A stretch of DNA of 64,000 bases from Spirochaetia bacterium (GTDB taxonomy: Bacteria; Spirochaetota; Spirochaetia; WTKD01; G963693115): positions 81,499-145,498 of the forward strand of contig CBDDCA010000002.1 of assembly GCA_965226055.1 (NCBI GenBank), given 5' to 3'. Of the stretch, positions 12,323 to 29,715 are shown piece by piece. Below the pieces are notes generated by a model that was given only the letters and a program-made list of their open reading frames with translations, was not told the origin of the DNA and searched no databases. The translations under genes were made by a program, and so were the position numbers. Positions within the stretch are counted from its first letter, which is position 1; every line of letters starts with the position of its first letter.

Positions 12323-13942
12323 ATGCAAACAAAACAGGATAGTATTCTTATTATTGATTTTGGTTCTCAATATACTCAGCTTATTGCAAGACGAGTGCGT
12401 GAACAAAATATATTCTCTATTGTTGTTCCTTATACATATACCAAAGAGCAGATACATTCGCTTGTTATCAAGGAACATATGGTGATAAGAGGGATTATTT
12501 TATCAGGAGGACCTGGCTCTGTTATTGAACATGATCATCCTACTATACCACAGTATGTATTTGAATACGAACTTCCACTGCTTGGTATTTGTTATGGTAT
12601 GCAAGCCTTAGTGTTACATGAGAATGGCACTGTCCAATCTTCTGTATCAACACAGTCGTCTCATACATCAAATGGAAACAATGGAGAATATGGAAAAACC
12701 GATATTTTCTTTGATACGAAAAGCGAGATTTTTTCAAGCATTGTTCAGAAACACAATCATGTTTCTAAATCGATTACTGTATGGATGAGTCATGGAGATA
12801 GCGTTGATACACTTCCTAGTGGGTATACTATACTAGCTCGTACAGAGAACGGTGTTATTGCAGCAATACATCATAAGACAAAAGCAATTCTTGCGTTACA
12901 GTTTCATCCCGAGCTTAGCCATACACAGTATGGTGAAACTATATTAGCGTATTTCTTGTTTGATATGTGTCATTGTTCAAAGACATGGAATATCGCAACA
13001 TTGATTGATGATTACATTACTGATATTCAACGCACAGTACAGGATAAGCAGGTGCTTTTAGCTATTTCTGGTGGAGTAGATTCTGCTGTACTAGCATTAT
13101 TACTCCATAAAGCATTGGGCAATAAACTGCATTGCTTTTTTGTTGATAACGGCTTGCTCCGCAAGAATGAAGCTCATATGGTACTACATACTCTTTCTGA
13201 TACTATGGGCTTGACTGTCAAAAAGATAGAAGCACAGCATCTGTTTTTACAAGCACTAGAACACAGTAGTGATCCAGAAGAAAAAAGAAAAATAATTGGG
13301 AGAATGTTTATACAGGTGTTTGAGCAAGAAGCGAAAAGTATTCCTTCTTTAGATTTTCTTGCACAAGGGACAATATATCCTGATTGTATAGAGTCTGCCC
13401 GTTCTCAAGCAAACACAGCACACGTAATAAAATCTCATCATAATGTAGGAGGGCTTCCAGAGAGACTTTCTCTACGATTGTTGGAGCCACTTAGTAATCT
13501 GTTTAAGGATGAAGTAAAAAAGCTAGGAAAAGCGTTAGGACTGGATGACAGTATTTTATACAGGCATCCTTTTCCTGGTCCAGGGTTAGCTGTACGAATT
13601 CTTGGAAAAATAGATGCACATAAAATTCAGAAATTGCAAGCTGCTGATTCTATTTTTATTGAGGAGCTTCATGCGTATAATTTATACCACTCAGTAAGTC
13701 AAGCATTTGCTGTATATATCCCCGTAAAAAGTGTCGGGGTAGTAGGAGACAGAAGATCGTATGAAGATATCATTGCATTGCGAGCAGTTGAGACAGTGGA
13801 TTTTATGTCAGCACGATGGGCTGCATTACCACAGAAATTTCTTGCTCATGTTTCTAATAAAATAGTAAATTCAGTACAGGGCATAAGCAGAGTGGTATAT
13901 GATATATCAGATAAACCACCAGCTACTATAGAATGGGAATAG
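12323..13942 (+). CDS. guaA: GMP synthase (glutamine-hydrolysing)
   Basis: DFGSQYTQLIARR, GICYGMQ, SGGVDS, IKSHHNVGG, KPPATIEWE. Confidence 0.98.
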   Translation: MQTKQDSILIIDFGSQYTQLIARRVREQNIFSIVVPYTYTKEQIHSLVIKEHMVIRGIILSGGPGSVIEHDHPTIPQYVFEYELPLLGICYGMQALVLHENGTVQSSVSTQSSHTSNGNNGEYGKTDIFFDTKSEIFSSIVQKHNHVSKSITVWMSHGDSVDTLPSGYTILARTENGVIAAIHHKTKAILALQFHPELSHTQYGETILAYFLFDMCHCSKTWNIATLIDDYITDIQRTVQDKQVLLAISGGVDSAVLALLLHKALGNKLHCFFVDNGLLRKNEAHMVLHTLSDTMGLTVKKIEAQHLFLQALEHSSDPEEKRKIIGRMFIQVFEQEAKSIPSLDFLAQGTIYPDCIESARSQANTAHVIKSHHNVGGLPERLSLRLLEPLSNLFKDEVKKLGKALGLDDSILYRHPFPGPGLAVRILGKIDAHKIQKLQAADSIFIEELHAYNLYHSVSQAFAVYIPVKSVGVVGDRRSYEDIIALRAVETVDFMSARWAALPQKFLAHVSNKIVNSVQGISRVVYDISDKPPATIEWE

Positions 13943-13944
13943 AG

Positions 13945-14991
13945 TTATTCAGCTTCAATAAAATCTGCAGGGATAAGATAATCTAAATTTGCATGACGAG
14001 GATCTTTTTTTTGGAGTGATGTTATTCTCTCTATACCAATGTTAGTAATATCTATATTGATAATTTTCCAGCTTTTTGCTTTTTTTTCTAAAAAAAATGT
14101 ATAATTTCGTATTTCTTTTCTTTGATTATCATATACTTTTGATACTAATGCTGCTACTGTTGCTTTTGTGCTTGTTCGTTGTACCTCATCAATAGAAAAG
14201 GCTGTATCTATGAGAAACATATAATCTTCTTGATATGATATATTTTTGATAAATGAAAGAAGTTCCTTGCGTTGCTGATGGTACGCAAGTGTATTGAATT
14301 GCCTTGTATCTTGTACTATATTGAGATAAAATGAATACAGGTCTACAGTACTAAAAAACTCATCCCAGTTGGTGTTTATAGCAGATTGCAATGCTTTTTT
14401 TACTGCATCTTCAGGATAATAGAATGTTTGTGATATTCTCCCTTCATTTGTATTCTCATTTCCAAATTCAGTTTGAGTAGTGTTTTCAAAGAATGTGGTA
14501 TCTTTTACTATTGAAATGAGTATCGGATCAGATGCTGCTTGTATGCTTTTATTATTGAAAGGATAAGGAAAAAAACGTACTGTAATGGTAAATGTTCCCG
14601 TAGAACGAAACTCTAGGTAATTATCAAGCATAATATCAAAAGAATATTTTTTTTCTTGGCTAAGGGATACTGTAGTATGTCCTGTATCTCCATTTGTATA
14701 AGGAGGGGTAGTATTGTTTAACTGTAAGTAATAAAATTGTGTACTAAAAGGGACAGGGAGTTTTAAGTTATCATATGCTTCCACTTTGATATTGTACATT
14801 CTATTATGTGCCATTTCTATATCTGATGGAAATGGTGAATGCAATGTTACTGTAATTTTTTTAGATTCATTTTCTAAGAATACTACTTTTTCAGGCTCTA
14901 TTTGTATGGATATATTATTTGTGTTTTGTTGAGAATGCACGACTATAGGGAATAATATTACAAAAAATAGCATGAGAATAGTATATTTCAT
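13945..14991 (-). CDS. Exported hypothetical protein
   Basis: 348-aa ORF with an N-terminal signal-peptide-like segment; no family recognised. Confidence 0.75.
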   Translation of the reverse strand: MKYTILMLFFVILFPIVVHSQQNTNNISIQIEPEKVVFLENESKKITVTLHSPFPSDIEMAHNRMYNIKVEAYDNLKLPVPFSTQFYYLQLNNTTPPYTNGDTGHTTVSLSQEKKYSFDIMLDNYLEFRSTGTFTITVRFFPYPFNNKSIQAASDPILISIVKDTTFFENTTQTEFGNENTNEGRISQTFYYPEDAVKKALQSAINTNWDEFFSTVDLYSFYLNIVQDTRQFNTLAYHQQRKELLSFIKNISYQEDYMFLIDTAFSIDEVQRTSTKATVAALVSKVYDNQRKEIRNYTFFLEKKAKSWKIINIDITNIGIERITSLQKKDPRHANLDYLIPADFIEAE

Positions 14992-21405: not shown

Positions 21406-21505
21406 ATATTATAAGTGTAGTATAATACCAGTTTGGAGTGTTGGGGGGAGGCTTTTGTTATTAAATGATTGTGTAAATAATTTAATAATGTGGTATAATG
21501 AGAAT

Positions 21506-22879
21506 ATGGAAGAAGAAAAATTTGATTATAAAGTTGAAAATATTCTTGAATATATTACAGCAGTGAGTGAAATTTATGATGATCTTGCTACTGATGATGA
21601 TGAAAAGAATGATAAATATAAAAAAATGCTATTTTTCAGAGGGCATGGAAGTTCAGAATATAAACTCTTACCAAGTCTTTTTAGAGAAAAGAGTAAGTCA
21701 AGAGGTGAGAAAAGAATTCTTGAGGATTATAAGCATCATTTACCAAGAAATATAAACATTAAAGGTTTAGATTTTGATAAAAATAGAGCAGAAATTTTAG
21801 CAGAGATGCAACATTATGGTATTCCTACACGGTTGTTAGATTGGTCACTATCTCCTATCATAGCTCTTTATTTCGCTTTAAAAGGCAGTCATGAAAAAAA
21901 AGAAAAAGGAAAAGATGCTTGTGTGTGGATATTTAATCCTTGGAAGTATTATGATAAAACTATAGGTGAGCAAATTAGGATTATGCAAGTTAGTTTAAAA
22001 GAAGAACTTTTTCGTATAATATATACAAAAAGACTTTATTCTGATTATAGAAGTGATATAGAGGAATGGAAGAAGGCATCTGATCATATAAAAAAAGCAT
22101 TAATTGATAAGCTGAAGGATAAAGATAAACAGGAAATAAAAAAAATTCAACAGAAGATAGAATCTGCTTGTAAAAAATTAATCAAAGAAAAAGAAATAGG
22201 TAAAAAAACATTTTTTAAGAATATAGATAAAAACAAGAAAAGAGAAGATGATGTTAAGAAGTTTATACAAGATGGAATGGATAAAAAAAGGGAGGGTAAT
22301 AAAAAAGAATTAAAACATATTAAAGAATATGTAAAATCCCTTGGTATTAAAGAACAAATAATAAATGATGTATTTACTAAATTAGAAGGAGAAATAGAAA
22401 AGAATTATGAACAGATGGACATTGATGTAAATAATATTCTAACTGCTTACTTACATTCTTATTCTTATTCTATATCTTCATTTTCATTAGGACATGCTCT
22501 ATTATCTAGTAACAGCAGGTTCAATGTTTATTACACCTTATTATCAATGCGAGGAGCAATAGAAAGAATTCCTGAAGAAAAAGTATTTCTTAAGATCCTT
22601 GAATACCCAATAGGATATATTCCATCATACCAAAATGATAGATTAATACATCAGGCATCAGTATTTACAATACACGGAACAGAAATAGATCTTCAGTTGA
22701 ATAAACAAAAAGAGAACTATCAATATTTGCGGAAGATAACTATTCCTGGAGCATTAAAAACAGAGATATTAAAAACATTGCATATGCTCTTTATAAATGA
22801 TTATACTATTTTTCCTGATTTTGAAGGGATGAGTAATCAATTTGAAATAACAAATGGCTTATTCCGTTATCGTGTATGA
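21506..22879 (+). CDS. FRG-domain protein with a long charged helical insertion
   Basis: FFRGH, LLPSLFR, MQHYGIPTRLLDWS.SP..ALYFA, NDRLIHQASVFTIHG, IFPDFEG; ATG 21506 preferred over TTG 21455. Confidence 0.88.
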   Translation: MEEEKFDYKVENILEYITAVSEIYDDLATDDDEKNDKYKKMLFFRGHGSSEYKLLPSLFREKSKSRGEKRILEDYKHHLPRNINIKGLDFDKNRAEILAEMQHYGIPTRLLDWSLSPIIALYFALKGSHEKKEKGKDACVWIFNPWKYYDKTIGEQIRIMQVSLKEELFRIIYTKRLYSDYRSDIEEWKKASDHIKKALIDKLKDKDKQEIKKIQQKIESACKKLIKEKEIGKKTFFKNIDKNKKREDDVKKFIQDGMDKKREGNKKELKHIKEYVKSLGIKEQIINDVFTKLEGEIEKNYEQMDIDVNNILTAYLHSYSYSISSFSLGHALLSSNSRFNVYYTLLSMRGAIERIPEEKVFLKILEYPIGYIPSYQNDRLIHQASVFTIHGTEIDLQLNKQKENYQYLRKITIPGALKTEILKTLHMLFINDYTIFPDFEGMSNQFEITNGLFRYRV

Positions 22880-22982
22880 ATGCAAAGAAGGAGCGGAAGA
22901 TATAAAAAAATCATTTATTTTTTCTTTATATTTAGATATTAATTAGAATTTTATACTATAATTTTCTTTTATTTAGTATCTC

Positions 22983-23024
22983 CTATCATGGATTTTTGAG
23001 GGCACACGAGATGGTAAAACTCCA
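22983..23024. mobile_element. Orphan terminal fragment of an IS related to the IS481-family element at 38364-39577
   Basis: ctatcatggatttttgagggcacacgagatggtaaaactcca aligns with 39535-39577 and its last 14 nt are the reverse complement of 38364-38377. Confidence 0.8.
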
Positions 23025-23042
23025 TTCCCGTGAAATATTCAC

Positions 23043-23071
23043 TTGACATATATAGTGTATATTGATACTAT
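23043..23071 (+). promoter_or_regulatory. Sigma70 promoter of the peptide-ThiF-ThiF-UvrA operon
   Basis: TTGACA-N17-TACTAT with extended -10 TG; TAAGGAG RBS before ATG 23106. Confidence 0.8.
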
Positions 23072-23105
23072 ATATAATATAACAAATATAATTAAGGAGT
23101 AATAA

Positions 23106-23309
23106 ATGATAAAGCATAAAAATACCATAGATTTTAATTTTGAAATTCTATCAAAGGCAAAGGAACATGATGCAAGATATTCTTATACTTGTAGCGGAGG
23201 TGTCAGCTATTGTTGTACAAGAACTTGTAGGGGTAATGATCATGTGAGTAATAGCGAAGATAAGTGGGCGACTTACTATAACTTAAATGCAGGAGTTGTA
23301 CAATATTAA
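23106..23309 (+). CDS. Cys-rich 67-aa peptide, putative RiPP precursor
   Basis: Strong promoter and RBS; central YSYTCSGGVSYCCTRTCRG; overlaps the first ThiF gene. Confidence 0.8.
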   Translation: MIKHKNTIDFNFEILSKAKEHDARYSYTCSGGVSYCCTRTCRGNDHVSNSEDKWATYYNLNAGVVQY

Positions 23310-24423
23310 CCTAGATAAAATATATCATCTACGTAATAGCGTAGATGTTTATATTTTTAATAAAAGTATACTTCACTTTTATTTTATCAATACAAGAAAG
23401 GAAGTAAGAATTCAGGTATCTCATGATATAATATCTTTTATTTCCCAATTAGATGGAAAGAAGACAGTAAGAGAGTGCTTATCACAGTTTTCATTAACTG
23501 ATGTTGATGAAAAAAATATAAGTGATTTTTTGCTATTTTTAGAAAAAGAAAATATTATAGCATGTGAATATGAGGATATTTTATTACCTGACCAGATTGA
23601 TAGATATACAAGACAAATTACATACATTGAAGATAGTATTTTAGGCAGTAAAGGACAAGCATTACAACAACAGCTTATTAGTAAAAAAGTTTTAATCTTT
23701 GGAGTAGGTTCGGTTGGTAGTGCTATTGCTATTTTTCTTGCTCGTATAGGAATAAAAAATTTTGTTTTAATTGATAAAGATACTCTTGAGTATGGGGATA
23801 GAGTAAGACATCTCTTTTATGAAGAAAAATATGTTCATTCATCAAAATGCAACAGTGTAAAAAAATATTTACAACAGATAGATAGTGATATACAAGTTAC
23901 TCCTCATCAGACATTGATACAACCTGATACAGATATAGAAAATTTTTTTGATGGCGTAGATTTTGTTATAAACACTATGTCTACCCCGTATATTCTTTAT
24001 ACTAGTTTGAAAATAGAAAAAGAATGCTTAAAAAGAAAAATTCCTCTGTATGTAGCTGGTGGTTTTGATGGGCACTTAGGATCGACAGGTGAATTAATTT
24101 TTCCTCCCCTTACTCCTTGTGTCTCATGTTATATGAATTATTTTTCATCAGCACTTAAAGATTGGAAGCCTAAATATAATGTTGAAGCCATTGATACAAG
24201 AAACATGAAAAATGCAAATTATGAAACTGGTGGGCTTGCTGGATTATCAATGTTATCTGCTTCGCTAGCAAGTGTAACTATTGTAAATTTTATGGTAGGT
24301 AACTATCAAAGTATTTTTCGAGGTGAATATGATTTTGAGAATATAAAAATTGATTATATTCAAATGAAAAAAAATAAAGATTGTAAAATATGCAACAAAT
24401 ATATAAACTCAGAAGTTCAATAG
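23287..24423 (+). CDS. ThiF/E1-like protein 1 with N-terminal RRE-like (winged-helix) domain
   Basis: DRYTRQI, GVGSVG, LIDKD, Zn motifs PCVSC and CKIC; N-terminal LDGKKTV.E pattern typical of PqqD-like extensions. Confidence 0.88.
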   Translation: MQELYNINLDKIYHLRNSVDVYIFNKSILHFYFINTRKEVRIQVSHDIISFISQLDGKKTVRECLSQFSLTDVDEKNISDFLLFLEKENIIACEYEDILLPDQIDRYTRQITYIEDSILGSKGQALQQQLISKKVLIFGVGSVGSAIAIFLARIGIKNFVLIDKDTLEYGDRVRHLFYEEKYVHSSKCNSVKKYLQQIDSDIQVTPHQTLIQPDTDIENFFDGVDFVINTMSTPYILYTSLKIEKECLKRKIPLYVAGGFDGHLGSTGELIFPPLTPCVSCYMNYFSSALKDWKPKYNVEAIDTRNMKNANYETGGLAGLSMLSASLASVTIVNFMVGNYQSIFRGEYDFENIKIDYIQMKKNKDCKICNKYINSEVQ

Positions 24424-25484
24424 CGCTTACCTATAGAAATATTGATCTTGATAAAATAGTCATTGATTTCTTTTTTACTGATATAAGAAAGAATATTTCC
24501 ATAGAGTTTTCTAGTAAAAAAATTTATGATATATTGTTTTTGTTTGATGGAAAAACAACTATTCAAGATATAATTCAGAAAATATCTATAACTAATATAG
24601 AAGCCTTTTTAAAGGTAATTAAAATGCTCAATGAGCAATGTATATTATTAGAAGTAGATACAGAATATAATGAATATTTTAGAGATAACTTTAAAGTATT
24701 TCATTTTTTAGAAAATTATTATTCAAAGATTAGTAGAGTAAACGAAGTATTTTTAAAAATTAAAAATAGCACAGTGATGATTATTGGGTTAGGAGCAGTT
24801 GGATCATTTGTTGCTGATATTCTTCTTGCTAATGGCGTAGAGAATTTCATATTAGTTGATAATGATACTGTTGCTATTTCTAATCTCCCAAGACAGTCAT
24901 TTTTTGAAAAAGATATTGGTAAGTATAAAATAGATTGTATAGCAGAAAAATTTATGAGTATCAACAGTAATGTAAAAATAGAAAAAATACATGCTTTTTT
25001 AGATAAAGATTTTTTTACACAGCATAATTTTAACAAGATAGACTTAATTATTAATTGTGCAGATAAGCCATCTGTTGATACTAACTCTCTTATAATAGGA
25101 GAGTATGGAATAAAAAATAATATACCTCATATTATTGGAGGAGGATATAATTTTCATATTTCCCTCATTGCTCAAACCGTAATTCCTTTTAAGACAGCTT
25201 GTGCTAAATGTCTTGATACTCAGCTAAAAGAGATAAATAGTTTTAAGGACACTGATATGAAAAGATTGATAAGAGAAGAACGTAAAATAGGAAGTTTTTT
25301 GCCATTATGTAATATTGCCTCTAGTATTATTTCAATGGAAAGTATAAAAATATTATCTGATTTAGATAAGTATCTTGGGACAGTAAATACACGGAAAGAG
25401 TTTAATGCTGAAACATTACAGATAATTGATAGGATGAAATTTAAAAAGGATCCTAATTGTTCATGGTGTTCAAATAATGGATAA
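24390..25484 (+). CDS. ThiF/E1-like adenylyltransferase 2 with N-terminal RRE-like domain
   Basis: GLGAVG, VDNDTVAISNLPRQ, INCADKP, Zn motifs CAKC and CSWC; FDGKTTIQDI in the N-domain. Confidence 0.9.
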   Translation: MQQIYKLRSSIALTYRNIDLDKIVIDFFFTDIRKNISIEFSSKKIYDILFLFDGKTTIQDIIQKISITNIEAFLKVIKMLNEQCILLEVDTEYNEYFRDNFKVFHFLENYYSKISRVNEVFLKIKNSTVMIIGLGAVGSFVADILLANGVENFILVDNDTVAISNLPRQSFFEKDIGKYKIDCIAEKFMSINSNVKIEKIHAFLDKDFFTQHNFNKIDLIINCADKPSVDTNSLIIGEYGIKNNIPHIIGGGYNFHISLIAQTVIPFKTACAKCLDTQLKEINSFKDTDMKRLIREERKIGSFLPLCNIASSIISMESIKILSDLDKYLGTVNTRKEFNAETLQIIDRMKFKKDPNCSWCSNNG

Positions 25485-27699
25485 TACAAATATTACATAT
25501 TCTAATATACTTACTAATAATCTTAAAGGAATAGATGTAACTATTGCCAAGAATAAAATAACTTGTTTTTATGGAAAGAGTGGTTCAGGAAAGAGTTCAA
25601 TAGCATTTAATACAATTAATGCTATTTCAGAGTATGAATATGATAAGCTTCATAATAAAGAAGGGAGTAATTATTCTTTTGTCGTTTCGGATTACAATAA
25701 TATTATTCCATCGGTAGCAATTAGACAAATTAATAAAAATAATAATAGTCTTTCAACTATATATAGTTTTACATATATATCATCTTGCTTAAAAAAAATT
25801 TTCTCATATTACTCTAATATGAAATCTACAAATTTTTCACTCAATAATCTCTATAACTTATGTATTCACTGTAAAGGAATTGGGCATACATACACCCCTA
25901 ATATTGAATACATCCTTGATAGGAAAAAGCCATTGGTACATCAGCCTATTAAGTATCATAATAAGTCTCGTCAGGATATATTTGATCAAAAATTGTTAAA
26001 GTTTTGTGCATTAAAAAATATTGATATACACAGTACTTTTGATGAATTAAGTACTGCAGAGAAAGATATGATTCTATATGGTGCTTCTGATCAAAAAATT
26101 GAATTATCCTATCAGGTATATACTAAAGCACATAAAAAAAGAACAAGAAAGGTAAAAGAGCATTATATAGGAATACTACAAGAAATTGAGCAAATACTTG
26201 CTAGTAAGAAAGATATAAAAGAAGAATTTTTGAAACAACAGCCTTGTATGTATTGTAAAGGAGCATTATTTAAAGAAAAAATAAGAGATATTCCTATTTT
26301 GAATAGTACAATAGGAGAGATTATGCTTCTTGATATTACTGGGTTATTGTCTTTTATTACGAGTAATAAGAGTGGTATTAAAGGGAGTGAGATAAGTACT
26401 AGTTTTAATTCATTGATGAATTTTTTACAAATTATGGTGAACAATAGCTTAGGACATTTATATTTAACTAGGAATATACCTTCTTTATCTGGGGGAGAGT
26501 TTCAAAAAATTCATTTTTGCTCAATACTCAACTCCTCGCTTTCAGGAATTTTGTTTGTAGGAGATGAAATTTCTTCTAATTTACATGTGAGTGAGTATGA
26601 AAATATATGGAATCAGATTCAAAACATAAAATCAAAAGGGAATACTATCATTTTAGTAGAACACGAAGATTACTTTATTCAAAGAAGTGATATTAAAGTA
26701 GAAGTTGGTCCAAAGGGAGGGGTAGATGGAGGAAGAATAGTTTCAATAAATTCATACAAGAAAAGTCTTGATAGCAGTTTTAGAAATAAGATTACGGCTG
26801 AAACATTTATAAAAATAGAAGATATCAATATCAATAACATTACCCACATGACAGTCAATATTGCAAAAAATTGTCTAAATTGTATTTGTGGAATATCTGG
26901 TTCTGGAAAAAGCTCTATTTCAAGATACTTACATGATAGGTATCCAAATTTTATTTATATAAATCAAAAACCAATTAATTCAATAAGCAAATCTATCATT
27001 GCAAGTTTTTCAGGTATCTTTACCGATATTAGAGAGTTATATTCTCAAGAGAATAATATTGATATGAGTTATTTTACATTTAATTCAGAAAATGGGCAAT
27101 GTCATACTTGTAAAGGGAAAGGGCTTATTGAGGAAAAAATTAGTTTTTCAAATGATGTCATATCATATATGTGTCCTAGTTGTAATGGTGTGAGATTTAA
27201 TAATGATATTTTGCAGTATACATTTAAGGATCATAGTATATATGAGTTATTAAATTTGACAATAGATGAAATAATTTATAGTAATCTTTTTGAAGAGAGT
27301 ACCTCTTTAACAAATAAACTAGCATTGTTTGCTACTTTAGGATTAGGATATTTAACATTATTTCGCTCTGTAAAAAGTATTTCAGGCGGTGAATCACAGC
27401 GGCTTAAAATGATTAAGTATATCAATACCAATATTGAAAATAAATATTTTATCTTTGATGAGCCATTTACGGGAGTAGATAAAAGTAATTTTAGAAATAT
27501 ATTACAGCTGTTTGATGAGTTGATTAGAAAATCAGCAACAATTATTATTGTAGAACATAAATTAGAAGCAATTAAGAATAGTGATCACATAATAGAACTT
27601 GACAGAAATAAAAAAAATGAAGGAAATATAGTATTTGAGGGAAATATAGAACAGATGAAAAAGAGTAAAAAATCTATTATTAAAAATTATTTATTGTAA
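25477..27699 (+). CDS. UvrA-like twin-ABC ATPase, short class II (UvrA2/DrrC-like) form
   Basis: NNLKGIDV, two Walker A (GKSGSGKSS, GISGSGKSS), LSGGE/ISGGESQR, DE and VEH motifs, four CxxCxG pairs; only 740 aa. Confidence 0.88.
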   Translation: MDNTNITYSNILTNNLKGIDVTIAKNKITCFYGKSGSGKSSIAFNTINAISEYEYDKLHNKEGSNYSFVVSDYNNIIPSVAIRQINKNNNSLSTIYSFTYISSCLKKIFSYYSNMKSTNFSLNNLYNLCIHCKGIGHTYTPNIEYILDRKKPLVHQPIKYHNKSRQDIFDQKLLKFCALKNIDIHSTFDELSTAEKDMILYGASDQKIELSYQVYTKAHKKRTRKVKEHYIGILQEIEQILASKKDIKEEFLKQQPCMYCKGALFKEKIRDIPILNSTIGEIMLLDITGLLSFITSNKSGIKGSEISTSFNSLMNFLQIMVNNSLGHLYLTRNIPSLSGGEFQKIHFCSILNSSLSGILFVGDEISSNLHVSEYENIWNQIQNIKSKGNTIILVEHEDYFIQRSDIKVEVGPKGGVDGGRIVSINSYKKSLDSSFRNKITAETFIKIEDININNITHMTVNIAKNCLNCICGISGSGKSSISRYLHDRYPNFIYINQKPINSISKSIIASFSGIFTDIRELYSQENNIDMSYFTFNSENGQCHTCKGKGLIEEKISFSNDVISYMCPSCNGVRFNNDILQYTFKDHSIYELLNLTIDEIIYSNLFEESTSLTNKLALFATLGLGYLTLFRSVKSISGGESQRLKMIKYINTNIENKYFIFDEPFTGVDKSNFRNILQLFDELIRKSATIIIVEHKLEAIKNSDHIIELDRNKKNEGNIVFEGNIEQMKKSKKSIIKNYLL

Positions 27700-27786
27700 T
27701 ATAATAGAAAATATAGATGCTTATATAACTTTATTCCCCCACCCAAACTAAACAATAACGCCATAATACACTATAATATAAAATAA

Positions 27787-29715
27787 ATGGTATTTCACTC
27801 TCTCGCAATACATATACTAGAGCAATCTATACAGGCACTCTATGCTCCCATGCTAAAGGAAAGCAATGCCACTGTAGATAATGCTACACTCTCTACTATT
27901 ATGGGTATTCCCCCTAGCATAGACAAAGGAGACGTGGCTTTTCCCATGTTCTTTCTTGCAAAGATTGCAAAGAAAAGCCCGAAAGATATAGCTGTTCAGC
28001 TTGTTGAGTATATTATGAGCCAAAAAGACACACAAAATAGCAATGGTTATAATAATTCTCCAAAAAACTCCCTGCATCTATTACAGAAAGTGCAAGCTGA
28101 TGGGGCATATGTGAATGTATTTTTTCAAAGGATAGCCATTACTAAACTGGTACTACAGGATATTGAACAACAAGGACAGCAGTACGGAGCGACACTCCAT
28201 TCGATAGCACATGCCTATATTGATGCACAGTATAGCACCGAACCTACGCTAAAAGGCAAACGCATAATGATAGAATATTCTGCCCCCAATACCAATAAGC
28301 CCTTGCACATAGGGCATCTGCGTAACAATGTACTAGGAGAATCTATAAGTCGTATACTAGCCTTTTCTGGAGCAGAAGTGCAGCGAGTCAATCTTATCAA
28401 CGACAGAGGCGTGCATATTTGTAAATCCATGCTTTCGTATCAGATGTTTGCACATGGGGAAACCCCTGCACAAGCACAGCAAAAGCCAGATCATTTTGTA
28501 GGAAGCTACTATGTAAAATACAGTAAGTGGGCAGAACAGCATCCTGAGAAAGCAGAGCAAGCAATAAACACCATGCTACAGCAGTGGGAACAAAACGATC
28601 CTGAAACCCGAGCATTGTGGAAACAGATGAATACATGGGCGTTGGCAGGCATATTTGAAACCTACAAAGTTACTGATATTCATTTTGATACAATTTACTA
28701 TGAAAGTGAAACCTACCAGCGAGGAAAAGAAGAAATTCTTAAAGGGTACAAAAAAGGACTTTTCTATAAAGATGAGAAAGGAGCTATACGCCTCTCGTTA
28801 AAGGAAATAGGCCTTGATGAAAAAGTGCTATTACGCTCCGATGGTACGAGTGTGTACATTACCCAAGATGTAGGCACTGCACTGCAACGATATGAAGATT
28901 GGAACTTTGACACACACATGTATGTTGTTGCAAATGAACAAACATATCATTTTCAAGTATTATTTTATTTGCTTAGCACACTAGGCTTTGCTCCTGCCTG
29001 TAATAACGCCATGCAGCATCTCCACTATGGTATGGTACATCTTCCCGAAGGAAAAATGAAATCAAGAGAAGGGAAGGTTGTCGATGCCGATGATCTTATT
29101 GCTACTGTGTCCTCACTTATCAAAGAAGAAGTATATGAACGCAACAGACACGATGAGTTTGAAGATGTAGAGTCGGTGGTACATAACATAGCATTAGGAG
29201 CTATCCATTATTATTTGCTTCATGTAAATGCCAAAAAAGATTTATTGTTTAACCCTGCATCTTCTATATCGTTTCAAGGAAACACAGGCCCCTATCTACA
29301 ATATACCTGTGCAAGAATCACCTCACTCTTACGAGAGTATAATCGCAAGCACAACCTAAAGCACAGTCAAAAGTACAGCACAGACACAGAGACTGCTGAA
29401 GCTCCCGCCCCCCAAGATATGCAAAGCCTCTCCCAAAACTATAGCATGCAAGATGAAGAGTGGAAGCTCATCATAAAGATGGATAATTTTGCCTCCATCA
29501 TTACGCAAGTAATAGAAAAACACGATCCTTCACTCCTAGCGAAATATGTGTACGAGCTTGCAAGCGATTTTGCACGATATTACCATAGTGTTCCCATTGT
29601 GAAAGAACAGAACCCTGCCATACAGTCATTGAGATTGAGAATATGCACAGCACTTTTACAGGTAATGAAAAATGCACTGCATTTGCTGGTCATTCCCTAT
29701 GTAGATAAAATGTAA
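27787..29715 (+). CDS. argS: Arginine--tRNA ligase
   Basis: EYSAPNTNKPLHIGHLRN, RSDGTSVYITQD, KMKSREG, GNTGPYLQY. Confidence 0.97.
   Translation: MVFHSLAIHILEQSIQALYAPMLKESNATVDNATLSTIMGIPPSIDKGDVAFPMFFLAKIAKKSPKDIAVQLVEYIMSQKDTQNSNGYNNSPKNSLHLLQKVQADGAYVNVFFQRIAITKLVLQDIEQQGQQYGATLHSIAHAYIDAQYSTEPTLKGKRIMIEYSAPNTNKPLHIGHLRNNVLGESISRILAFSGAEVQRVNLINDRGVHICKSMLSYQMFAHGETPAQAQQKPDHFVGSYYVKYSKWAEQHPEKAEQAINTMLQQWEQNDPETRALWKQMNTWALAGIFETYKVTDIHFDTIYYESETYQRGKEEILKGYKKGLFYKDEKGAIRLSLKEIGLDEKVLLRSDGTSVYITQDVGTALQRYEDWNFDTHMYVVANEQTYHFQVLFYLLSTLGFAPACNNAMQHLHYGMVHLPEGKMKSREGKVVDADDLIATVSSLIKEEVYERNRHDEFEDVESVVHNIALGAIHYYLLHVNAKKDLLFNPASSISFQGNTGPYLQYTCARITSLLREYNRKHNLKHSQKYSTDTETAEAPAPQDMQSLSQNYSMQDEEWKLIIKMDNFASIITQVIEKHDPSLLAKYVYELASDFARYYHSVPIVKEQNPAIQSLRLRICTALLQVMKNALHLLVIPYVDKM

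Follow-up and report, generated by a model that had tools for sequence, protein, structure and literature searches.

Reviews present the characterised peptide-modifying ThiF-like enzymes as single-gene enzymes whose target for activation in the peptide is the C-terminal carboxylate for MccB and EnfB and a glutamic acid side chain for PaaA and GrcB, and the ones with solved structures, MccB and PaaA, as homodimers. Among the types of RiPPs (ribosomal peptides that are modified after translation) made with such enzymes, only the GxxQY type is reported with two of them (Wang et al., 2024, ACS Omega, PMC11256085). Here we analysed a stretch of 64,000 nucleotides from a Spirochaetia bacterium (assembly GCA_965226055.1, contig CBDDCA010000002.1, positions 81,499 to 145,498 of the forward strand), referred to below as the window, in which a cassette of four genes encodes a 67-residue Cys-rich precursor peptide, two ThiF-like proteins (ThiF-1 and ThiF-2) and a UvrA-like ATPase. 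With a precursor that ends in NAGVVQY and two ThiF enzymes that fall in separate clades, this cassette belongs to the GxxQY type. Comparative sequence evidence and a structural model make it likely that ThiF-1 and ThiF-2 assemble into a heterodimer. With less assurance, we lean towards a pseudo-symmetric arrangement in which the subunits exchange arginine fingers, with two sites in most members of the family and a single one in the lineage of the window, where ThiF-1 would be a pseudo-enzyme.

The window cassette shares with the GxxQY type its peptide ending, two distinct ThiF-like adenylyltransferases and an occurrence over a wide range of phyla, Spirochaetota included, and its members are derived outliers within that type. 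The original description differs in being a bioinformatic listing, whose accessible text reports neither a product nor an enzyme activity and deals neither with subunit arrangement nor with motifs (PMC11256085); the words 'UvrA' and 'excinuclease' are absent from its main text, figures and supplement excluded. In the literature searched, which leaves out most subscription journals, the term 'GxxQY type' was found nowhere else, and a search of the same scope for a ThiF-like heterodimer with a precursor peptide returned nothing. Two 2025 reviews of ThiF-like peptide enzymes do not contain 'heterodimer', 'two ThiF' or 'UvrA'. In common with MccB and PaaA, as the reviews describe them, are an N-terminal peptide-binding domain joined to an adenylation domain, a CxxC...CxxC pattern and the ATP-dependent activation of a peptide carboxylate, the first and last of these being putative for the window proteins. 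MccB and PaaA differ in being single-gene homodimers with two identical sites, whereas the present enzymes are two diverged paralogues that always occur as a pair. The window precursor also lacks both a C-terminal Asn and an EEN core.

Asymmetric partnerships of adenylation domains are well known from eukaryotes: in SAE1-SAE2 and NAE1(APPBP1)-UBA3 an inactive subunit donates an Arg to the active one. The likeness of the window pair to these heterodimeric E1 enzymes lies in subunit logic only: two adenylation domains would form a pseudo-symmetric pair, with catalysis in a single one of them. Here there is no catalytic-Cys domain, ubiquitin-fold domain or E2, the candidate substrate is a Cys-rich peptide of 67 residues ending in QY and not a beta-grasp protein ending in GG, and most members of the ThiF-1/ThiF-2 family look active at both sites. 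Uba1 likewise combines one inactive and one active adenylation domain, according to a review. The nearest described case is the yeast Tcd1-Tcd2 pair, a ThiF-like heterodimer for cyclic N6-threonylcarbamoyladenosine (ct6A) in which Tcd1, devoid of an ATP-site Arg, provides the active Tcd2 with the finger Arg59 (PMC13139853). As far as that source goes, the two cases share a subunit with a defective site that keeps its finger and, presumably in the window pair too, lends it to an active partner. The yeast pair differs in being eukaryotic, in acting on tRNA, in having no peptide-binding domains and in that Tcd1 has lost the ATP-site Arg and not the Asp.

Active-site motifs of the window proteins

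Both proteins match PF00899 well above its cut-off of 28.1 bits (ThiF-1, E value 1.5e-32, 113.1 bits; ThiF-2, 5.9e-39, 134.1 bits). Neither reaches TIGR02356, the model of ThiF/MoeB proper, where they score at best 84.6 and 91.6 bits, the equivalog cut-off being 275.25. The best solved relative is the microcin C7 synthetase MccB (E values of 1.4e-17 for ThiF-1 and 2.2e-26 for ThiF-2), followed for both by E1 enzymes, MoeB, ThiF and PaaA. PF00899 is the only Pfam domain found in either protein, and an N-terminal domain lies ahead of it. About 95 conserved residues of this domain align between ThiF-1 and ThiF-2 in a profile-profile comparison; the profiles of the two families, T1 for ThiF-1 and T2 for ThiF-2, align over 362 columns in hhalign with the N-terminal domains included, and both proteins align from about residue 46-66 on with the corresponding domains of PaaA and MccB. 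On the basis of these mutual and external alignments, we consider the N-terminal domains to be putative peptide-recognition domains.

An earlier reading made from the DNA sequence alone had proposed that the two proteins carry complementary half active sites, ThiF-1 having kept the RYxRQ finger motif and lost both SNLxRQ and the Mg-binding Asp, and ThiF-2 the reverse. Translation of the exact coordinates bears out all five motif strings, which are present in the genes concerned: DRYTRQ, GDRVRH and INTMS in ThiF-1, and SNLPRQ and INCAD in ThiF-2, in which RYxRQ is absent and FRDNFKVFH stands at that place. The loss of SNLxRQ in ThiF-1 is partial, its Asn and Gln being replaced and its Arg (R174) kept. 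GDRVRH stands opposite NTNLTRQ of MccB, and the Ser of INTMS opposite the Asp of MccB vvsaDhP. R174 aligns with the ATP-coordinating Arg, named as MoeB Arg73 and ThiF Arg70 (PMC13139853).

Residues 106-264 of ThiF-1 align to residues 8-158 of ThiF, which therefore places R109 opposite ThiF Arg11; this residue and MoeB Arg14 are described as fingers supplied by the neighbouring subunit (PMC13139853). The finger position of ThiF-2 is K102, on which a joint MAFFT alignment, hhalign and a comparison of the family profile with MccB agree; a single-sequence phmmer alignment of ThiF-2 to MccB is shifted by one residue at this point. The ATP-site set (Gly-rich loop, ribose Asp, R73, K86 and D130 in MoeB numbering, with residue numbers taken from papers) is complete in ThiF-2. 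ThiF-1 retains its finger, the Gly-rich loop, D163, R174, K187 and four Zn-type Cys, and its ATP-site set is complete but for the Mg-binding Asp, replaced by S232. This position aligns with MoeB Asp130, which a review counts among the conserved active-site residues.

Conservation and decay of the two sites

Using one genome per species we found 77 related loci in many phyla; residue counts refer to 71 pairs (70 aligned genome pairs and the window), and a database comparison comprised 120 T1 hits and 120 T2 hits. The ThiF-2 gene directly follows ThiF-1 in 76 of the 77 loci, the remaining one lying at the end of a contig of 1469 bases. A search started from T2 recovered the same T1-T2 order in 5/5 loci (two plasmids, three viral contigs), so that neither gene stands alone in the 76 loci found with ThiF-1 or the five found with ThiF-2. 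The two genes share a strand in 71/71 pairs and overlap in 68/71, with gaps of 2, 3 and 15 nucleotides in the others. T1 (193 sequences) and T2 (194) are reciprocally monophyletic with a support of 1.0, which indicates that a single old duplication gave rise to both and that they were strictly co-inherited afterwards.

Table 1. Active-site residues in the 71 ThiF-1/ThiF-2 pairs, numbered as in the window proteins.
Position	ThiF-1 (T1)	ThiF-2 (T2)
Finger Arg	R109: 71/71	Arg at 102: 70/71; Lys in the window
Residue after the finger	Q110: 71/71	Val, Leu or Ile
First Arg of RYxRQ	R106: 65/71	not conserved
Asn of SNLxRQ	replaced: Asp 46, Ser 13, Asn 10	N165: 71/71
ATP-site Arg	R174: 67/71	R168: 71/71
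Residue after the ATP-site Arg	His 57, Asn 9, Thr 3	Gln 50, Ser 21
Lys	K187: 71/71	K180: 71/71
Mg-binding Asp	D232: 70/71; E233 also 70/71	D225: 70/71

At the place of GDRVRH the T1 family reads [S/D][D/S/N]xxR[H/N/T], and Asn together with Gln, as in canonical SNLxRQ, occurs in 0/71 ThiF-1 sequences. Judged by these motifs, the family-wide asymmetry is one of flavour: in ThiF-1 the finger is canonical and the phosphate motif variant, and in ThiF-2 the reverse. The sequence-only reading named a lack of its motif asymmetry in homologues as a ground for refutation, and by this standard it is partly refuted, complementary half sites not holding as a property of the system, with the ThiF-1 Asp present in the 70 other pairs and the ThiF-2 finger Arg in 70. 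Because these other 70 pairs carry full sets, having one catalytic site is a trait of the window lineage and not of the family. The same holds for the E1-like combination of a defective subunit with a retained finger, found in the window (S232/T233 together with R109-Q110) and not in the other 70 pairs.

Lesions in the protein's own site were counted in five of the 71 ThiF-1 sequences (D232S in the window, R174K in L016, R174C in L032, R174L in L041 and R174S in L042), and R109-Q110 is intact in all five. A finger that outlasts the site of its own subunit is easier to explain as serving the site of the partner. The single lesion in ThiF-2 (1/71) is D225G in L015, in an operon with a fragmented UvrA-like gene. 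The excess of lesions in ThiF-1, together with the absence of canonical SNLxRQ, would also agree with a ThiF-1 that acts throughout the family mainly as a peptide-presenting scaffold, as the ThiF-like protein beside YcaO cyclodehydratases does, and whose 'catalytic' residues are used for nucleotide-dependent regulation; ThiF-like proteins used only for peptide binding are indeed known from a review. We consider this very improbable, as R174, K187 and the Asp-Glu pair of ThiF-1 are about as conserved as their counterparts in ThiF-2 (Table 1), which is what a working site would lead one to expect.

Two side observations concern the copies that depart from the common pattern. A subgroup without the UvrA-like gene (L047-L054, L056, L058-L064, L068, L070 and others), drawn from alpha- and beta-proteobacteria, cyanobacteria and others, has SNLNRS in ThiF-2, xDxxR[N/T] in ThiF-1 and a precursor of the form ...CSAD...GG[Q/E][I/V]QY. 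Decaying copies, with ThiF-1, ThiF-2 and/or the UvrA-like gene split into fragments of open reading frames (ORFs), are seen in L015, in L073 (Helicobacter muridarum) and in L076 (Helicobacter labacensis).

The two changes that set the window apart occur together. The Asp to Ser change of ThiF-1 is found in 1/71 genome pairs, the window, and in 2/120 hits (P0001, the window protein itself, and P0002); the Arg to Lys change at the finger of ThiF-2 is likewise found in 1/71 pairs, again the window, and in 2/120 hits (P0121, the window protein, and P0122). P0002 and P0122, metagenomic proteins 46% and 54% identical to the window ThiF-1 and ThiF-2, were placed together on one contig of 13287 bases solely from the equal sizes of their contigs. 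With the window proteins they form groups (support 0.999 and 0.998) that lie within the T1 and T2 families, and this nesting is weakly supported in ThiF-1 (0.29, 0.24) and well supported in ThiF-2 (0.97, 1.0). What is lost is the site of ThiF-1 and the finger of ThiF-2, and what survives is the site of ThiF-2 and the finger of ThiF-1. This joint decay is expected if the fingers act across a mixed dimer, unlike the case of two homodimers. The INTMSTPYILYTSLK stretch of ThiF-1 is identical in P0002 despite the 46% overall identity, and this together with its full length argues that the window ThiF-1 is still under constraint.

The conservation of the altered stretch could also be read as a sign that the window ThiF-1 still works in a two-site heterodimer, with Ser232/Thr233 or another residue binding the metal and Lys102 of ThiF-2 replacing the Arg. 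The Gly-rich loop, D163, R174, K187 and the four Cys are all kept, and Lys for Arg is a conservative change. Such a ThiF-1 seems improbable to us, given that none of the other 70 genome pairs lacks the Asp, which is also present in 118/120 hits and aligns with a residue, MoeB Asp130, listed by a review as a conserved part of the active site. The window precursor, an outlier with VSY for RSD and YYNL for [F/Y]LE[V/I], also fits the loss of one modification.

Subunit arrangement and proposed mechanism

The complex of ThiF-1 with ThiF-2 was modelled without the peptide, the heterodimer being the only complex scored. With paired alignments it reached an ipSAE of 0.91 (0.91, 0.91 and 0.90 in the separate runs), and the best of three controls 0.00; of 157 solved complexes 116 attain the mark used for ipSAE, as do 2 of 215 mismatched pairs. 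The runs share at least 93% of contacts, with a predicted local distance difference test (pLDDT) score of at least 87 for the partner. In the predicted interface, residues 105-110 of T1 contact residues 163-168 of T2, and mirror-wise residues 98-106 of T2 contact residues 169-176 of T1. Because dimers of the ThiF family are already solved, this score may show likeness only.

Several further points weigh against the heterodimer or against a single site in it. Both proteins have every scored catalytic residue in 70/71 pairs, so each could work alone as a homodimer, as MccB and PaaA do according to a review. The two families hardly differ in the helix at the centre of the interface (F323/S326 in T1, I309/S312 in T2), which accordingly gives no preference for a mixed dimer. 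In L032, L041 and L042 the site Arg of ThiF-1 is gone and the finger Arg of ThiF-2 is still there. The joint decay is a single evolutionary event represented by two sequences. A fusion of ThiF-1 with ThiF-2 was not found: a word-index search for longer forms gave one weak match (P0241, 48 bits), and among the best 150 representatives the sole long protein, P0316 (775 residues), is not such a fusion. For MoeB and ThiF, catalysis is reported not to depend on the arginine finger (PMC13139853). ThiF-2 might work without ThiF-1, and Ser232 of ThiF-1 might allow some activity.

P0316 consists of a ThiF-like peptide enzyme from the wider family and an unrelated C-terminal domain of about 400 residues that by eye resembles arginase/agmatinase. 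Charge and shape asymmetry at the predicted interface was also tried as a criterion for hetero- versus homodimers and rejected, the core helix being alike and giving no discrimination.

Most of these points would be accommodated by two separate homodimers, as in MccB and PaaA, acting in turn on one precursor, with the motif differences as signatures of the two families and the window ThiF-1 as a decaying or leader-binding relic: homodimeric relatives, full catalytic sets in both families (70/71 pairs), the shared interface helix, the failure to find a fused form and a finger reported as dispensable in MoeB and ThiF all favour it. We nonetheless judge it unlikely, if a serious competitor. A dead ThiF-1 homodimer needs no finger, yet R109-Q110 is invariant in all 71 pairs, the five with lesions included, and a ThiF-2 homodimer in the window would have weakened its own finger and kept its own site. 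The two rare changes co-occur solely in the window lineage, ThiF-1 remains full-length and constrained, as its INTMSTPYILYTSLK identity with P0002 indicates, and neither gene occurs alone in the 76 and five loci examined. Of the obligate, asymmetric, one-site heterodimer first proposed for the window, what stands is a likely heterodimer, supported by pairing, gene overlap, reciprocal monophyly, finger invariance, the model and the joint decay; the single site is likely as well, for this lineage only. That the heterodimer is obligate does not follow from the motifs, since the finger is reported as non-essential for catalysis in both MoeB and ThiF (PMC13139853). In the first proposal the two N-terminal domains could also bind the leader and the C-terminal follower of the precursor separately.

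The cross-finger heterodimer that we favour would work as follows. In each subunit an N-terminal domain that binds peptide would be joined to an adenylation domain of the E1-like kind, and the two subunits would form a heterodimer of the MoeB/MccB type in which the Arg on the N-terminal helix of each enters the ATP site of the other. In typical members the canonical site, that of ThiF-2 (SNLxR[Q/S], NCAD), would be completed by RYxRQ of ThiF-1, and the variant site, that of ThiF-1 ([S/D]DxxRH, NT[L/A]DE), by the finger xxxR[V/L/I] of ThiF-2. Both composite sites would act, giving two ATP-dependent carboxylate activations on one precursor. In the window lineage the Asp-Glu of ThiF-1 is lost and the ThiF-2 Arg that would serve it is now Lys, which probably leaves a one-site enzyme. 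ThiF-1 would then persist as a pseudo-enzyme that supplies a finger, a peptide-binding domain and half of the dimer. As the cases of MccB, EnfB and IndF suggest by analogy, ThiF-2 would adenylate the C-terminal carboxylate of the invariant Tyr of the precursor, and an intramolecular attack would follow. The C-terminus is the likely substrate of the canonical ThiF-2 site because the QY end is invariant and because of the targets of the known enzymes. The second modification, which in other members would be made by ThiF-1, would be missing in the window lineage.

Precursor, ATPase and genomic setting of the cassette

The precursor has a leader-like IDFNFEIL, a Cys core, CSGGVSYCCTRTC, and a C-terminus W...NLNAGVVQY of the GxxQY type. 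A profile of the small ORF found a homologue in 75 of the 77 related loci, and both misses start inside the enzyme genes. In the resulting 76 aligned peptides (75 loci and the window) conservation is at least 90% for the leader Phe, for four Cys and for Trp(-14), Gly(-5), Gln(-2) and Tyr(-1), and the family core reads CSGxRSDCCTRxC, followed by Trp at -14 and the GxxQY end. The residues in which the window precursor departs from this pattern at conserved acidic positions are compatible with the loss of one modification but are not counted as evidence of it. A link between the precursor Asp (RSD) or Glu (LEV) and the Asp of ThiF-1 was dropped as evidence because several loci without the peptide Asp (L028, L039, L050, L056 and L072 among them) still have the ThiF-1 Asp. 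Further members of the window lineage, and the precursor partner of P0002 and P0122, were sought in metagenome contigs by means of an alignment that combined P0001 with P0002; this returned only L086, in which the profiles found no ThiF-1 or ThiF-2. As further observations, a Spirochaetales locus (L037:611-1155) has two tandem precursor genes with another Cys core, CKTNG...CCTTYC, and L039 contains an additional truncated precursor-like ORF.

All genes of the low-GC island that holds the cassette lie on the + strand (Table 2), in the order FRG gene, precursor, ThiF-1, ThiF-2 and UvrA-like ATPase. The island (21455-27699, 6.2 kb) has 27% G+C against 37.5-38% in its flanks. The ThiF-2 gene overlaps ThiF-1 by 34 nucleotides and the UvrA-like gene by 8. 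The terminator-like hairpin begins 17 nucleotides past the stop codon of the precursor and could set a high ratio of precursor to enzyme transcripts; in the region 22700-27900 five terminator-like sites were observed against 0.8 expected from shuffled sequence, and promoter-like sites were not enriched (42 against 40.4). No cassette orthologue was found in any of 40 relatives of the host genome, from genus to class, in which the best match (E value 2.8e-16, about 250 residues) resembles a housekeeping ThiF/MoeB. Its distribution has the look of horizontal acquisition; a search around the island for flanking repeats or attachment sites gave nothing convincing.

Table 2. Features of the low-GC island, in positions of the window.
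Feature	Position	Strand	Remark
FRG-domain gene	21455-22879	+	474 residues; PF08867, E value 3.4e-21
Precursor gene	23106-23309	+	67 residues; ORF with AAGGAG upstream, a good ribosome-binding site
ThiF-1 (T1 family)	23287-24423	+	378 residues; putative MccB-like N-terminal domain and adenylation domain
Terminator-like hairpin and T run	23326-23347	+	9-pair stem; within the 5' end of ThiF-1
ThiF-1 DRYTRQ (residues 105-110)	23599-23616	+	arginine-finger motif; finger R109
ThiF-1 GDRVRH (residues 170-175)	23794-23811	+	at the place of SNLxRQ; Arg retained
ThiF-1 INTMS (residues 228-232)	23968-23982	+	Ser232-Thr233 at the Asp-Glu position of the family
ThiF-2 (T2 family)	24390-25484	+	364 residues; putative MccB-like N-terminal domain and canonical adenylation site
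ThiF-2 K102	24693-24695	+	finger position
ThiF-2 SNLPRQ (residues 164-169)	24879-24896	+	
ThiF-2 INCAD (residues 221-225)	25050-25064	+	catalytic Asp225
UvrA-like ATPase	25477-27699	+	740 residues; fourth gene of the cassette

The ATPase matches UvrA models (E value 3.6e-121) with 405.9 bits, below the equivalog cut-off of 1147. Aligned to UvrA, it lacks about 167 residues close to the N-terminus, and Pfam finds the UvrA DNA-binding domain and does not list the UvrA interaction domain. By its sequence it is a UvrA-type tandem ATP-binding cassette (ABC) ATPase without a detectable UvrB-interaction domain. A UvrA-like gene follows T2 or adjoins the pair in 49/76 loci. UvrA-like proteins without the UvrB-binding domain are described as self-resistance genes in clusters for DNA intercalators (DrrC, Ecm16 and others; PMC10413001). 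Common to both settings, as far as that source describes them, is a UvrA paralogue without this domain inside a biosynthetic cassette; the difference is that theirs accompany actinobacterial polyketide or non-ribosomal products, and here the paralogue is paired with a ribosomal peptide and the range covers many phyla. The resemblance of the window protein to these self-resistance proteins suggests that the product of the cassette may be DNA-directed.

In 19 loci, though not in the window, a gene for a RadC-like JAB peptidase (HNHPSG; PF04002, E value about 1e-30) lies between the precursor and ThiF-1 (L005, L007, L009-L015, L018, L022, L025, L026, L037, L038, L049, L055, L065 and L066; for example L009:7534-7986). 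The pairing of an E1-like enzyme with a JAB peptidase recalls bacterial ubiquitin-like systems. No other flanking family occurs in more than five loci, and no transporter or protease recurs.

The FRG protein upstream of the cassette matches the PADLOC candidate PDC-S15 (E value 1.3e-44); in L009 an FRG gene (12840-14093) follows the cassette. PADLOC holds no model for the ThiF-1/ThiF-2 pair beyond generic E1-E2 matches. On the mobilisable plasmid pXBB1-8 of Acinetobacter johnsonii (L088) the same four-gene cassette stands directly after pglZ-brxL of a bacteriophage exclusion (BREX) system, on the mobilisable plasmid pNP7-2 of Moraxella osloensis (L087) between insertion sequences, and in IMG/VR on three predicted viral contigs (L089-L091). 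Among the 125 nearest flanking ORFs in the genome loci, 16 encode a transposase, integrase, relaxase, primase or terminase and at least 11 are of the restriction, Abi, BREX, Dnd or antitoxin type, both being raw counts read by eye from a table.

Since no exporter is present and the surroundings are mobile or rich in defence genes, a function in conflict inside the cell or in defence against phages deserves consideration beside that of making a secreted antibiotic. The fuller form of this proposal, that the cassette is an intracellular conflict or anti-phage module on mobile DNA and not a cluster for a secreted antibiotic, is tentative and in our estimation unlikely. It would have the E1-like heterodimer activate the invariant C-terminal Tyr of a Cys-rich mini-protein, with the product or a conjugate acting on DNA, the UvrA-like ATPase as DNA-directed partner or immunity, and the RadC-like JAB peptidase as a processing or de-conjugating enzyme, comparable to E1/JAB pairs in the ubiquitin-like defence systems of bacteria. 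In that case the window lineage would represent an E1-like pair drifting from two active sites to one. A drift of this kind is thought to have given rise to the eukaryotic heterodimeric E1s.

If the heterodimer is true, its conserved two-paralogue form would be the first heteromeric enzyme of the peptide-modifying ThiF-like class, and a bacterial model for the origin of E1 enzymes with one inactive and one active adenylation domain, for which both the two-site state (70/71 pairs) and the one-site state (the window lineage) are available in nature. The cassette itself is widespread, being present in 77 species genomes of many phyla as well as on plasmids and viral contigs; compact and without an exporter, it is a target in the search for either a ribosomal peptide directed at DNA or a novel defence module.

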